From contig JBBRTI010000001.1 of the NCBI GenBank assembly GCA_038244585.1, positions 37 to 64,036 of the forward strand: a stretch of DNA of 64,000 nucleotides, read 5' to 3'. This stretch comes from Candidatus Saccharimonadia bacterium. GTDB taxonomy: Bacteria; Patescibacteriota; Saccharimonadia; UBA4664. Made by a program: the position numbers. Numbering within the stretch: position 1 is the stretch's first letter; each line of letters starts with the position of its first letter. Below are positions 27,001 to 33,000 of this stretch, piece after piece.

Positions 27001-30000
27001 GAACCCGGCTGCGGCGTACCTGATGCCGGCGATTCTTATTACTGCAGACCGATTGAAGCGGGGTAACGGGTGGCTTTGGGCGGGTGCGTTGGCCTTCTTC
27101 GGGGCAGTATTCGCACTGGCCGATTCCCGTGGGGCGACCTTGGTCTTGCTTCTGGTGGCGGGTTTATACCTGCTGGTGTCCAGGCATAAGAAGGCATATT
27201 GGATAACTTTATTGTTCGCTATTATTGCAGGGGTTACGCTGACTATTGTTATGGTGCAAGTGCGGTCAATTCCTGGAAATGCTGTGACTTCTACAGCACC
27301 CGGTGAACGGTTCAAAGAGGCTGCCTTGGGTGAGTCTCAGAGCGGTAAGGACCGGATCAATTATTTGATTAGTTCAGTTCGTTTATGGGAGGATCACCCG
27401 TTTTTGGGAACGGGTGCGGGGACCTTCCGCGACGTGCACCCAGGCCGCCAAATTGCGGTGGTGAGTGCGTCGGCCAATGCGCACAACTTTTATGTTCAAG
27501 CCTTGCCGGAACTGGGACTCTTGGGTGTCTTCCTGGTGGTGATGCTAGCCACGATACTGTTATTTGGTTTGTTACGAGGACTCCTGGGTGGCGGTGAGAA
27601 TTTACCGATAGTGTTGGGCTGTGCGGCTCTACTAATGCATATCGGCCTCGATATAGACGCCAGCTACCCGGCGCTTCTGGGTTTGACTGCACTTCTCGCG
27701 GGGTTGGTTTACAGCCAAGGCAAGACTGAGGGGGTTGTTTTCTCGTGGCGGGTACCGGCCGTGGCTGCTCTCTTGCTTGTCCCGGTCATTCCGTACTACC
27801 AGGGCAGCGTGCTGGCGGAGCGAGCGTCCGCGTATCAGGCTGATGGCGATATCACGGGTGCTGCCGAGTACTATGGCCGGGCCCACGAAGGGCTAGTCTA
27901 TAATCCTGACTGGATTAATGCCGAGGGCATAGCCTTGTATACCCTGGCCGGCGGCGCCACGGCCGGGGAGCGAGCGAGGCTGTCATCACTGGCGCTGGAC
28001 CGGGCCCACCAGGCGGAAGCTCTGGATCCGCGGGACGGGCAGCACCACCAGCTGGCAGGGCGGGTGCTGGCCCTGCGTGGCGATTATGCCGCCGCCGCTC
28101 AAGAGTTAAAACGCGCCTTGCAGCTTGATCCGTTTGATCATCCGGATTATGCCTATGACCTGGCTCGCATGCAGAGTTTTGAGGGCAATACCGCAGCGGC
28201 CCTGCAAACGGCACGCTCAATGCTGGCAAATTATCCGTTGCAGGTCATCCAAAACCGCAGTGCCGACGTCGCACTGCGTCCGGCACTGGTAGGCCTTGCC
28301 ACCTACGTAGGATCAACGGAGTTGGCGGCGGGTAACCTGGCCGCAGCACGGGAAGCGGCAGACCAAGCCGCCATGTATGACCCCAATGACTTCCGAACCA
28401 AAGGCCTTCAAAACGCCATTTTGAAAGCCGTTGCGCAGTAGCGCTAATCCAAGCGCGTTGGTACAATAAGCGGTATGCAACTTCTCTATGCCGTTATACT
28501 CGGCATCACCCAGGGTCTCACCGAATTCATTCCGGTCTCCTCGTCGGGGCACCTCATTTTGGTCGGACATTTCCTTGGTTTCAACCATTCGGGCCTGGCT
28601 TTTGATACGGCGCTTGATATCGGTACGCTGGCCGCGCTGTATCTCTATTTTGCTAGAGATTTCATTGACATGGCGCACGATCTGTTTGTAGGTGGGCCAA
28701 AGCGTAAGCTCGCTTGGTACATTGTTATCGCGACGATCCCGGCAGTAATCGTCGGCATTTTGATTCAGCACACCGCGGAAACTCTTTTCCGGTCCAGCCA
28801 GCTGGTGGCGGTCAACCTGATTTGGGTTGGTATCATCATGTTCTTCGTCGACCGTCTGATGCGCAGCGACAAAGTCATGGCCGATATCACTCTTCCTAAG
28901 GCTGTAGTGGTGGGACTGGCCCAGTGCGTAGCTCTGATTCCGGGTGTTTCCCGCTCCGGTGCCACTATTACGGCTGGCCGGGCACTGGGGCTGGATCGGG
29001 TAACGGCCACCCGTTTCTCGTTCTTATTGTCGGCGCCGATTATCACTGGAGCGACACTCAAAGTCCTGATGAAGCCGGCCAACCTGCAGGACTTCGCCAA
29101 CGCTCCTACTCTCTACGTCGCCGGCATTCTGGCGGCCTTTATCAGCGGCTATTTTGCCATCAAGTTTCTAATTACCTACCTTAGCCGCCACGGCTTGGGC
29201 GTGTTCGCGGCCTACCGCATCGCCGTCGGTATTTTGATTTTAGCGATCGGCCTCAAATGAACCTAACGAAGCTGGCCTTTGACCTGATATCAACGCTCGG
29301 TTACGGCGGTCTGGCCTTCGGATTGTTCATTGATAGTTTCGGCATTCCGATTCCGTCAGAGGTCCTGGTACCTCTGGCAACCGCTCTAGTCGCCCAGGAT
29401 AAGTTCACTCTCGTCGGCGTGTTTGTGGTTTCGGTAGTCGCCCAGACGCTCGGGGGCTTGGCTGGGTATGCCATCGGGCGCTACGCGGGGGAGCCGTTCC
29501 TGCTCAAATACGGCCGGTACGTTCTGATATCGCACCGCGACCTAGTCAAGACCCACCTGGCTTTCCAGAAATACGGCCGCCTGCTGACGCTTGTCGGGCG
29601 CTGTCTGCCGGTTATCCGCGGGCTCATCGCCTATCCTGCCGGCATAGCTGAGATGCCCATTCGGACGTATATCGCCTTCACTGTCATCGGATCGGCCCTG
29701 TGGACTTTAATACTCATGTACCTGGGGTCATTACTGGGCGACCACTTAGACCTCATAGAAAGATACGGCCACCAGTTGTCATACGTGATCATAATCGCCA
29801 TCGTCGCCGCCGTAGGCTGGCATGTTAGCCGCGTCATTAAAGATAGGCAGGCCTAAGCGTGGAACAGACCTTCGTCTGGGCGGGGGCTATCATTGCCTCG
29901 TTCGGGTATCTGGGGCTCGAAGTGGCATTGTTCTTCAACTGTCTTGGACTGCCGGTTGCTTCGGAGGTAATTCTGCCATTGGCCGGCATCGCAGTTAATC

Positions 30001-33000
30001 AAGGTAGCTTTGAAATCGTGCCGACGTTCATGGCCGTCATGGGCGCTCAGATGCTTGGTTTCAGCTTGGCGTACCTGATTGCACGCCATGCCGGCGTCGG
30101 TCTGATTGAAAAGTACGGTAACTATCTGTTAATCAGTCACAAGCAGGTAGTTAGGGGACAGAGATTGTTTCGCAAACACGGCTCCATCATCATGCTGGTC
30201 GGTCTGATTACTCCGGGCATGCATGGGTATATGGGGTATTCGGCTGGATTGGCCAAGATGCGCGTAACTACGTTTTTGATCGTGGGAGTGACCGGCACGG
30301 CCATTTGGTCGGCGGCTTTGATTGGACTTGGCTATCTCTTTGGCGATAAACTGCCACAAATTCTAGATTTCGGTAACCGGGCAGGACTCGCCACCGGAAT
30401 AATTGTTGCCTCGTGTGCCTTGTACTTCTGGTATAGTAGGCATCGTAGGCTCAAAACCCGCCCTAGTCGCCACTCATCACGCCGTGGAGCGCCGGCGGCA
30501 GCTAAATTACGATAGGAATACGATGACCATCCAAGAGACCACGCTGGCCAACGGCCTGCGCATCATTACCGCCGACTTCGCTGACGCGCGCAGCCTGACT
30601 GCTAATATCGTCGTCGGGACAGGCAGCCGCTTCGAGGACTTCAGCGTCAACGGCGGCGTTTCCCATTTTTTGGAGCACTTATTGTTCAAGGGTAGTAAAA
30701 AATACCCGACGGCGGAAGACATAGCACTAGCCGTCGACGCGGTGGGAGGCTATAACAACGCTTACACCTCGGAAGATATTACCAGCTACTACATTAAGGT
30801 CCCGTCAAAACACGGCGAGCTGGCCCTTGATATCCTAACCGACATGATGCGCAATCCTATCCTGGATTCGGCGGAAATCGACCGTGAACGCGGCGTCATC
30901 GTGGAAGAAATGAACGTCTACCGGGATGACCCCGCTCGCTTCGTGGGCACGATGATCCCGGCGCTGATTTTCCCCGGCAACCCCCTGGGCAAGGACATTA
31001 TAGGCAGCGAAGAGGTGATCAACCGCATTGCTGCGCCCGATATCGTGGCGTATCAGAAGCACCACTATCAGCCCGGTAACATGGTGATAGCGGTGGCCGG
31101 CAAGGTCGATCATGCGGCCGTCGTAGCTCAAGTAGAAGCCGCTTTGGGCGATCTCGTGCCCGGTGAGCTCGATAAGGTGGAAGCGGTCGGTCAGGATTTG
31201 GCCTCCGACCTGGCTGTTACTCAGGCGAAACCCACTGCTCAAGCCCACTTTATCGTTGCCGCCCGCAGCTATCCCTATGCCCACCCAGACGACCGTGCCG
31301 CCAAAGTTATGTCGGCCATTCTGGGCCGCGGCTCCAGCTCGCGCCTGTTTATGAACGTTCGCGAGCGCCAGGGCCTGGCTTACACCGTGTATTCGGAAAT
31401 CAATAACTACGTCGACACGGGCATCTTTCAAGTCTATGCCGGGGTTAACCTGGATAAGATCGACCAGGCACTGACCGCTGTACTGCACGAGCTTCAGGTT
31501 ATCTGCGACGAAGACGTGACGCCGGCTGAGCTCGACAAAGCCAAACAGCAGCTGTGCGCCGGACTGGAAATGAGCCTGGAGAGCAACAATGCCGTGGCTG
31601 ACCGGTTGGGCTCACAGCTGGTGCTCACTGGCGAGTCCAAATCGGTAGATCAAGTAATCGCTGAAATTGAGGCCGTAACCGTCGCCGACGTTCGCCGCGT
31701 GGCCGCTGATCTCCTCCGTCCCGGCAAACTGCGGTTCGCCATCATTTCCCCCGAGCCCGCCGCCGCCGCCGAGCATTTCAAATCAATCGTTACGAAAGGA
31801 TAGTCATCATGGAAAAAACTCTTATCATTTTCAAGCCCGACGCCGTCCAGCGCGGCTTGGTGGGCGAGATTCTCACCCGTTTTGAAAAAGTCGGCCTTAA
31901 ACTAGTAGCTCTTAAAATGCTGACTGCTAGCGACGAGCAGCTGCACGGCCATTACGAAGGCATCGGCGGCCTTAAGACCCGCAAAGGGGACCAGATTTTC
32001 ACTAACACGGTCAACGGTATGCAGGGAGGCCCCGTCATTGCCGGCGTCTTGGAAGGCGTTGAAGCCGTCGATCAGGTGCGTAAGATGGTTGGCCCGACCG
32101 AGCCCAAGAGCGCCGCTCCCGGCACTATCCGCGGCGATTATGCCCATATGAGCTACAGCCACTCCGACAAGGTCCAGAAAGGCATCCCCAACCTCCTTCA
32201 CGCCTCCGCCGACGCCGACGAAGCGGCCAAGGAGATTGCACACTGGTTTACGGGAGCCGAGCTGCACAATTACACCTCGAACCACGAGAAGCACACTTTT
32301 TAGTCTTGTGGCAGAGAGAGAAGACAAATGATCCTACGAGTTGCAGATTTGCCTACGCGAGTGCTTCGTCGATTTTCACTTGGTCAAGGAATTCGTGCGA
32401 CAGGCGCGGGTCACAGTAATGGCGAGTGCGGTAAATGAGGCCGTCGCGGATTTCGCAAATAGCCACGATTGGGGTGCGGAAGCGCTGGCCGCTGTTGGTG
32501 TCTGCGTAGCTTTCGATAAACTCGATGACGACAGTTTGGGCACTTTCATCGGCCACGGTAGAGATAAATTGATACTGGCGATCAGAAATTTGAAAGGCTT
32601 CGCTAATAAGGGCGCGAACCTCTTTACCGGTGAGCGAGGCAAAAATAGAGCCATTAGGTCCAATATTCATTTCAACAACTTTGAAGTCGGGATGGAGTAG
32701 CGCGAGCCCGGCTTGGGTGTCACTGGTTCGTTCGGCTTCAAAAGAGGTCATAACGAGATTGGTGAGCTCTAATTTGGTCATGTGGTGATTATAGCAATAA
32801 ATAAATGCCCAGACATAGAGAAAGCTCCGGAACACCATTGGTTGTGGTGTTCCGGAGCTCATGTGCTCAGGTGGTTCAGACTGCAGCCGCCGGGGCGACG
32901 TTGCGTGTCTTGAGCGTGACCTCGTCGATGTTCGTCAGCAGGCCGGGCTGACCCATGCCGCGGAGATAGGTCTCCGTGGAAATGAGCGCACCGGTCTGGA

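Follow-up and report, generated by a model that had tools for sequence, protein, structure and literature searches.

A conserved uppP–dedA gene pair in Saccharimonadia, followed in one subclade by a charge-neutralized DedA paralogue, as a candidate undecaprenyl-phosphate recycling module

When a gene for an undecaprenyl-diphosphate (Und-PP) phosphatase is followed directly by two genes of the DedA family, do the three encode a unit for recycling undecaprenyl phosphate (UndP), the carrier lipid, and do the two DedA proteins perform the same task within it? The question is raised by a locus on contig JBBRTI010000001.1 of a Candidatus Saccharimonadia bacterium (assembly GCA_038244585.1), of which we analyzed a stretch of 64,000 nucleotides (positions 37 to 64,036 of the forward strand; hereafter the window) that carries uppP and two tandem dedA genes, dedA1 and dedA2. 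We find that a phosphatase-plus-flippase recycling unit is well supported as a prediction for UppP and DedA1, whose gene order recurs in related genomes and in which the DedA residues expected of a flippase are kept, and that DedA2 is a lineage-specific paralogue in which three of the four charged residues have been replaced.

The three genes lie on the + strand (table 1). Open reading frames (ORFs) of the window were scored against Pfam gathering cut-offs and the junctions were read from the raw sequence; the coordinates given for the uppP, dedA, dedA series in an initial annotation of the window were borne out exactly, with all three same-strand ORFs above the gathering cut-offs, and the LISHxxxV and FxKxG motifs that it listed are present in both DedA1 and DedA2. 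It had also described the junctions as overlapping or 3 nt long, of which the overlap stands (the uppP stop and the dedA1 start share an ATGA, a 4-nt overlap at 29257–29260) and the length does not: the TAA of dedA1 ends at 29856 and the GTG of dedA2 begins at 29859, leaving a 2-nt spacer. The series continues on both sides. A gene for a Wzy_C/TPR protein, the first of the conserved cluster, ends 33 nt before uppP; dedA2 closes with a TAG ending at 30515 and is followed, after a 7-nt spacer, by the ATG of an M16 peptidase gene at 30523; and ndk, the last conserved gene of the cluster, begins 5 nt past the M16 stop. A scan for terminators and promoters returned no convincing + strand terminator, and no other convincing internal signal, inside the gene series.

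The product of uppP is a member of the UppP/BacA family and a predicted Und-PP phosphatase. It scores 263.6 bits against the Pfam BacA model (PF02673; cut-off 33.4), covers positions 1–257 of 257, and matches the E. coli UppP structure 5OON (E 6e-38); its best NCBIfam equivalog score relative to cut-off is that of TIGR00753 (216.4 vs. 217.5 bits), and its scores on the other equivalog models likewise fall below cut-off. The motifs GLTEFIPVSSSGH and PGVSRSGAT are both present and align to 5OON. In E. coli numbering, we take the catalytic motifs of the family to be ExxxE...PVSSxGH (E17, E21, S27, H30) and PGxSRSGxT (R174). The E17 position is occupied by Q13 in the window protein (codon 28511–28513), with the other catalytic motifs kept (GxxQGLTEFIPVSSSGH), and Q stands at this position in all 13 Saccharimonadia UppP orthologues (loci L002–L017 and L045); the copy from a gammaproteobacterial metagenome-assembled genome (MAG; locus L053) has E.

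DedA1 is, judging from its sequence, a canonical DedA of the COG0586 type and a candidate UndP flippase. The UndP-flippase DedAs of COG0586 are defined in part by a pair of arginines, R130 and R136, located at the re-entrant helix 2 tip (Todor et al., PMC9881974), and in E. coli YqjA and YghB the residues E39, D51, R130, and R136 are all essential. In an alignment with the E. coli paralogues (YghB numbering), D26 of DedA1 corresponds to E39, E35 to D51, R115 to R130, and R121 to R136; DedA1 combines a VTT domain (PF09335; 80.4 bits, cut-off 33.9) with the acidic pair (D26, E35) and the basic pair (R115, R121) of this type. In Bacillus subtilis UptA, R112 and R118 belong to a network with E32, Q64, and W146, and their mutation lowers binding of UndP (C55-P) and sensitizes cells to MX2401; DedA1 has residues corresponding to E32, Q64, R112, R118, and W146. 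We regard DedA1 as canonical because neither the four charged positions nor Q63, P118, and W149 vary among 27 DedA1 orthologues or at any Patescibacteria locus, and it is fully canonical also in the genomes that carry DedA2. Its ratio of nonsynonymous to synonymous substitution rates (dN/dS) is 0.08 and that of UppP 0.07, both rough values given saturated synonymous sites (dS). A sequence search of the PDB with DedA1 gave chance matches to ribosomal proteins only; the AlphaFold2 (AF2) models of the two DedA proteins (DedA1: predicted local distance difference test score, pLDDT, 81, and predicted template modelling score, pTM, 0.75; DedA2: pLDDT 73) have helices arranged as expected of a DedA protein and a short loop at each of the two re-entrant tips.

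UptA models are the best NCBIfam matches of both DedA proteins, though far below their equivalog cut-offs: NF052604 (Bacillus UptA; cut-off 250 bits) gives 124.2 bits for DedA1 and 68.1 for DedA2, and NF052605 (Staphylococcus UptA; cut-off 300 bits) gives 93.7 and 71.1. All E. coli paralogues score lower (56 bits or less), and short DedAs from unrelated phyla and from an archaeon reach 95–126 bits, indicating that the score marks the general COG0586 type of ~200 aa and not orthology. We accordingly rejected it as evidence that either protein is an UptA orthologue. In a neighbour-joining (NJ) tree with the eight E. coli paralogues, both DedAs belong to a COG0586 group without E. coli members, the support for which is weak (26–42%).

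The closest homologues of both DedA proteins are found in Candidatus Saccharimonadia/Patescibacteria MAGs, and a Logan assembly holds a contig identical to this one. To survey gene order, one genome per species (GTDB representatives) was scanned with an alignment of DedA1 orthologues and the neighbouring ORFs were classified by phmmer. Among the 17 Patescibacteria loci counted (L002–L015, L017, L026, and L045), uppP lies immediately upstream of dedA1 in 13 and the Wzy_C/TPR gene lies further upstream in most; dedA1, then the M16 peptidase gene, then ndk are found in all 17, and dedA2 is present in four (L002–L005). The full order Wzy_C – BacA – DedA – DedA – M16 – NDK, with the same 4-nt ATGA overlap, is also found on three metagenome contigs with DedA2 orthologues (L089–L091). 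The uppP–dedA1 order persists across the class to about 43% DedA1 identity, with dS already saturated in the closest pair, and its recurrence in related genomes argues that the arrangement is not a chance neighbourhood. Of the uppP–dedA–dedA synteny whose conservation the initial annotation proposed to check, the uppP–dedA1 part is conserved and the trio is confined to a subclade. Outside the phylum, the nearest DedA relatives (from Methylophilaceae, Acidobacteriota, and others) have no adjacent uppP, except in one gammaproteobacterial groundwater MAG (L053:5153-6591), where uppP lies directly upstream of a canonical DedA and overlaps it in stop-to-stop ORF coordinates; this looks like an independent uppP–DedA linkage outside Patescibacteria. 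On a separate 6.5-kb contig binned as Acidimicrobiaceae, a DedA gene (L018:4244-4951) lacks M16 and ndk neighbours and its product groups inside the Saccharimonadia DedA1 clade, possibly reflecting mis-binning or horizontal transfer.

DedA2 shares 38% identity with DedA1 over 193 residues (E 2e-40) and retains a recognizable VTT domain (PF09335; 48.2 bits, cut-off 33.9), and at the positions considered above it has N27, E36, Q64, L116, P119, H122, and W150. The pattern of N or S, L or I, and H at the three replaced sites is found in all 18 DedA2-clade members collected and in further cluster representatives. When 27 DedA1-clade sequences were compared with 21 DedA2-clade sequences, only four alignment columns were fixed differently (D26N, G74A, R115L, and R121H), and three of these are the charged site residues, which suggests a divergence aimed at the putative proton and phosphate site. 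With N27, E36, L116, and H122 in place of an acidic pair and a basic pair, DedA2 is best not classed with the canonical UndP flippases, and it is unlikely to be a second ordinary one. The two DedAs are not on a par as UptA candidates, one acidic and both basic residues of the putative proton and phosphate site being absent from DedA2 and all its orthologues, and the suggestion in the initial annotation of a heterodimer or a difference in substrate gains motivation from this; of the proposed uppP–dedA recycling unit we retain the part formed by UppP and DedA1 and set aside the second DedA as a like candidate.

The altered site has nonetheless been maintained. DedA2 is under purifying selection: its dN/dS against the L002 orthologue is about 0.14 (rough, dS being saturated), its frame is intact in all orthologues, and 14 orthologues agree at 35 positions, one of them the replacement residue H122. 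The DedA2 signature (N, L or I, H) is rare: in a profile search of 1.84 billion cluster representatives, only about a dozen clusters at 50% carried it, and every one of these ranked with the top matches. The nearest relatives of DedA2 are Saccharimonadia DedA1 proteins (38% identity; 103–135 bits, compared with 71–85 bits for DedAs of other phyla), and a duplication within Saccharimonadia is the most economical account of its origin; in the NJ tree the DedA2 clade is monophyletic (69%) and is placed with Saccharimonadia DedA1 at a weak 42%, the deep nodes being unresolved. Membership in COG0398 was considered and ruled out, E. coli YdjX and YdjZ being distant in the tree and different in their loop sequences. 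When the DedA2 model was compared with the PDB by Foldseek, no match fell below E 0.9; neither this fold search nor the sequence search with DedA1 identified a solved DedA structure. Another DedA subfamily, a fairly common one (P0177, P0180, P0191, P0204, and others), makes up 21 of the 150 best representatives; it shows G in place of the first acidic residue and Y in place of the first arginine (GYFIPGVRH), keeps the second arginine, and scores about 95–108 bits on the UptA models.

The dedA2 gene directly follows a DedA1-type gene, with a gap of at most 3 nt or a 4-nt overlap, in all 13 contexts with readable upstream sequence (the window, L002–L005, L089–L092, L094, and contigs of P0134, P0155, and P0156). 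The K/R-rich segments of the two proteins coincide (the central loop at about 71–110 and the C terminus), and this parallel distribution indicates that DedA1 and DedA2 share the same topology; an antiparallel, dual-topology pair was ruled out on these grounds.

We hypothesize that the locus encodes a co-transcribed lipid-carrier recycling module of UppP and DedA1, with DedA2 as a substrate-blind or modulatory protomer of a DedA1–DedA2 heterodimer, and we hold this to be reasonably probable from the gene order and residue patterns described here. Enzymes of the Wzy_C-type family use glycans linked to Und-PP and release Und-PP, and the one encoded just upstream would be a likely source of this product. 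UppP would remove the terminal phosphate of Und-PP at the outer face of the membrane after glycan transfer, and DedA1, with its acidic and arginine pairs intact, would return UndP to the cytoplasmic face; if the Wzy_C enzyme does release Und-PP, the genes for three successive steps may stand side by side. DedA2, a Saccharimonadia duplicate in which the charges of the putative proton and phosphate site are gone (D to N, R to L, and R to H) and which is still under selection, would act together with DedA1. We favour a partner of DedA1 because of the tight tandem coupling, the strict co-occurrence, the unchanged DedA1, and the reported dimerization of UptA: UptA forms dimers, the dimer binds C55-P better than the monomer, and DedA cores more generally are thought to dimerize (Todor et al., PMC9881974). 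The stricter form of this proposal, an obligate asymmetric heterodimer in which only DedA1 has a working proton and phosphate site, we advance only tentatively.

Several observations weigh against the proposed module, and some of them invite other readings of the locus. uppP is absent within 6 kb at four of the 17 loci (L003, L007, L009, and L026) and from the cluster on several DedA1–DedA2 contigs, so the phosphatase link is not obligatory; where the position is visible in DedA2 contexts, uppP is found in only 7 of 11. The M16 peptidase gene and ndk, which have no known link to UndP, are kept more strictly than uppP (17/17 vs. 13/17), and the synteny may thus be partly historical rather than functional. 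Carried further, this argument would make the uppP–DedA adjacency an inherited order in a long housekeeping operon, without any coupling of dephosphorylation and flipping, and the restriction of all loci with the arrangement to one class, L053 alone breaking the rule among the closest DedAs from other phyla, agrees with it. We nevertheless consider inherited order alone unlikely, since the adjacency holds down to about 43% protein identity, synonymous sites being saturated, has arisen in unrelated lineages (Streptomycetes and Paenibacilli, and the gammaproteobacterial MAG), is accompanied elsewhere by DedA–PAP2 fusions (bioRxiv 10.1101/2022.02.03.479048; PMC9881974), and stands here downstream of a Wzy_C gene whose function, by family, is also linked to Und-PP. 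The flippase assignment itself has to reckon with UptA-model scores that are about half the cut-off for DedA1 and are matched by many unrelated short DedAs, and the heterodimer with the fact that no DedA heterodimer is documented in the literature searched. A further difficulty is posed by an 840-kb JGI contig (L093) with the order Wzy_C – single DedA – M16 – NDK. Its DedA (L093:4501-5133; protein P0162) lacks both arginines (GAFVPGIQG) and the first acidic residue, its hidden Markov model scores are intermediate between those of the DedA1 and DedA2 clades, and neither BacA nor a second DedA lies within 4.5 kb; an arginine-less DedA with no canonical partner nearby weakens the idea that such copies need DedA1.

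The L093 protein also lends weight to the main rival of a DedA1 partner, namely that DedA2 is an independent transporter with a changed substrate, moving or scrambling a neutral, zwitterionic, or sugar-modified lipid and not the phosphate monoester UndP; in an episymbiont auxotrophic for lipids, one candidate role would be to move phospholipids or lysolipids derived from the host. The residues lost are precisely those with a putative part in proton and phosphate binding, the COG0398 putative phospholipid scramblases are also without them (Todor et al., PMC9881974), DedA2 is under purifying selection, and Patescibacteria lack lipid synthesis, with no mechanism of lipid uptake known for them in the literature. 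This reading is, in our estimation, doubtful: DedA2 stands immediately downstream of DedA1 in every readable context, across junctions of the kind usual in translational coupling; only a small subclade has it, whereas the phylum as a whole is auxotrophic for lipids; and it descends by sequence from COG0586/DedA1 and not from COG0398. A broader version, in which DedA2 together with proteins of the P0162 type would be the missing lipid scramblases or importers of lipid-auxotrophic Patescibacteria, is less likely. That both DedAs are ordinary, partly redundant UndP flippases, as UptA and YkoX are in B. subtilis, would fit their common DedA/VTT domain and common best NCBIfam match, the retention by DedA2 of E36, Q64, P119, and W150 of the UptA hydrogen-bond network, the published finding that R112A/R118A UptA kept about half its C55-P binding in vitro, and the potential of H122 to contact phosphate. 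Such redundancy appears quite unlikely given that every DedA2 orthologue has substitutions at both arginines and at one acidic residue, that B. subtilis UptA and E. coli YqjA/YghB are reported to need the equivalent arginines in vivo, and that the UptA-model scores of DedA2 (68–71 bits) are far from the 124 bits of DedA1. Nor is a decaying duplicate without function a credible description of DedA2; it does evolve faster (68% identity to the L002 orthologue, compared with 83% for DedA1) and some close relatives, L007 among them, have lost it, yet the intact frames, the low dN/dS, the 35 invariant positions, and the fixation of the same replacements across the clade all speak for a maintained protein. 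A DedA2 that works as partner of DedA1 remains our preferred account.

Table 1. Coordinates of the gene cluster, the DedA site codons, and the type IV pilus genes in the window.
Feature	Coordinates	Strand	Support
Wzy_C (O-antigen ligase/polymerase-like) membrane protein with C-terminal TPR repeats, 637 aa	26528..28441	+	Pfam Wzy_C E 4.3e-16; TPR_2/TPR_14
uppP/bacA, undecaprenyl-diphosphate phosphatase (predicted), 261 aa	28475..29260	+	Pfam BacA E 2.8e-78
dedA1, canonical COG0586-type DedA, 199 aa, candidate UndP flippase	29257..29856	+	Pfam VTT E 2e-22
dedA1 key codon D26	29332-29334	+	
dedA1 key codon E35	29359-29361	+	
dedA1 key codon R115	29599-29601	+	
dedA1 key codon R121	29617-29619	+	
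dedA2, lineage-specific DedA paralogue, 218 aa, GTG start, basic C-terminal tail	29859..30515	+	Pfam VTT E 1.8e-12
dedA2 neutralized-site codon N27	29937-29939	+	
dedA2 neutralized-site codon L116	30204-30206	+	
dedA2 neutralized-site codon H122	30222-30224	+	
M16-family (insulinase-like) peptidase	30523..31803	+	Pfam Peptidase_M16 and Peptidase_M16_C
ndk, nucleoside diphosphate kinase	31809..32303	+	Pfam NDK E 1.6e-40
PilM	11093-12163	+	
PilB-like ATPase with MshEN domain	13632-15407	+	
PilT-like ATPase	15438-16559	+	
PilC/T2SSF	16566-17792	+	
Prepilin peptidase	18410-19216	+	
N-methyl pilin-like protein	19268-19915	+	

Upstream and divergent from the cluster, the window encodes a protein of 675 aa that carries NHL repeats and matches GDSL lipases weakly (24361-26388, − strand); a similar NHL protein occupies this position in L091, and a Xer-type integrase is found there in L089, L090, L093, and the P0155 and P0156 contigs. 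Close relatives have a CYTH-domain gene after ndk on the same strand (L089–L091, at about 6955-7571), at the position of which the window has, on the other strand, a SnoaL-like gene and a 274-aa ORF without annotation (32353-33700, −), indicating that the conserved cluster ends at ndk here. Further away lies a type IV pilus gene cluster (11093-19915, +), which fits the Saccharimonadia assignment; two large ORFs just upstream of it (7370-9076 and 9554-11065) have no Pfam match.

The pairing of uppP with dedA is in itself already published and not surprising, and Saccharimonadia add a new lineage to a known linkage, which the locus thereby extends to the candidate phyla radiation (CPR). Since CPR bacteria have minimal genomes and no lipid synthesis, efficient reuse of carrier lipid should matter greatly to them; the main text of a Saccharibacteria transposon-sequencing (Tn-seq) paper makes no mention of DedA, undecaprenyl, or lipids. 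The new element is a conserved, charge-neutralized DedA paralogue that always stands behind a canonical DedA. A tandem pair with the four charged residues kept in one member and three of them lost in the other offers a natural contrast for asking whether the DedA dimer is the working unit. An obligate heterodimer, if real, would be a natural example of DedA lipid flippases acting as dimers, and would imply either that a single active protomer is enough or that an inactive partner regulates it.

Among characterized DedA proteins, UptA (B. subtilis YngC and its S. aureus counterpart) resembles DedA1 in its length of about 200 aa, in the full-length alignment of DedA1 to the UptA models, and in the five network residues; DedA2 differs in having no equivalents of R112 and R118. 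E. coli YqjA, YghB, and DedA, the last of which confers MX2401 resistance (Roney & Rudner, bioRxiv 10.1101/2022.02.03.479048), share the four charged positions of DedA1 but are more distant: against the E. coli DedA model, DedA1 reaches just 60 bits. The genes for the E. coli paralogues are dispersed around the genome, neither in tandem nor adjoining bacA. The COG0398 DedAs (YdjX/YdjZ/TVP38-like), proposed to be phospholipid scramblases (Todor et al., PMC9881974), resemble DedA2 in that re-entrant loop 1 is without its acidic residues and loop 2 without one or both of its basic ones; DedA2 differs in its apparent descent from COG0586/DedA1 and in still matching COG0586-type models best, so that its likeness to COG0398 is most simply read as convergent loss.

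The closest precedent for the locus as a whole is the linkage described by Roney & Rudner (bioRxiv 10.1101/2022.02.03.479048, Fig. 3A, S11, S12), who presented dedA genes adjoining uppP, as well as dedA–PAP2 adjacencies and fusions, as evidence that UptA flips UndP; their uppP–dedA examples come mostly from Streptomycetes and Paenibacilli, and fusions of DUF368 to BacA have been noted by Sit et al. In both settings a DedA gene adjoins a same-strand gene for an Und-PP phosphatase, and sequential recycling steps would be encoded together; the window belongs to this class by its 4-nt, same-strand overlap and by the recurrence of the arrangement in representative genomes and on the L089–L091 contigs. 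It differs in coming from Saccharimonadia, in embedding the pair in a larger cluster with Wzy_C/TPR, M16, and ndk genes, and in the addition, within a subclade, of a second DedA whose charges have been neutralized.

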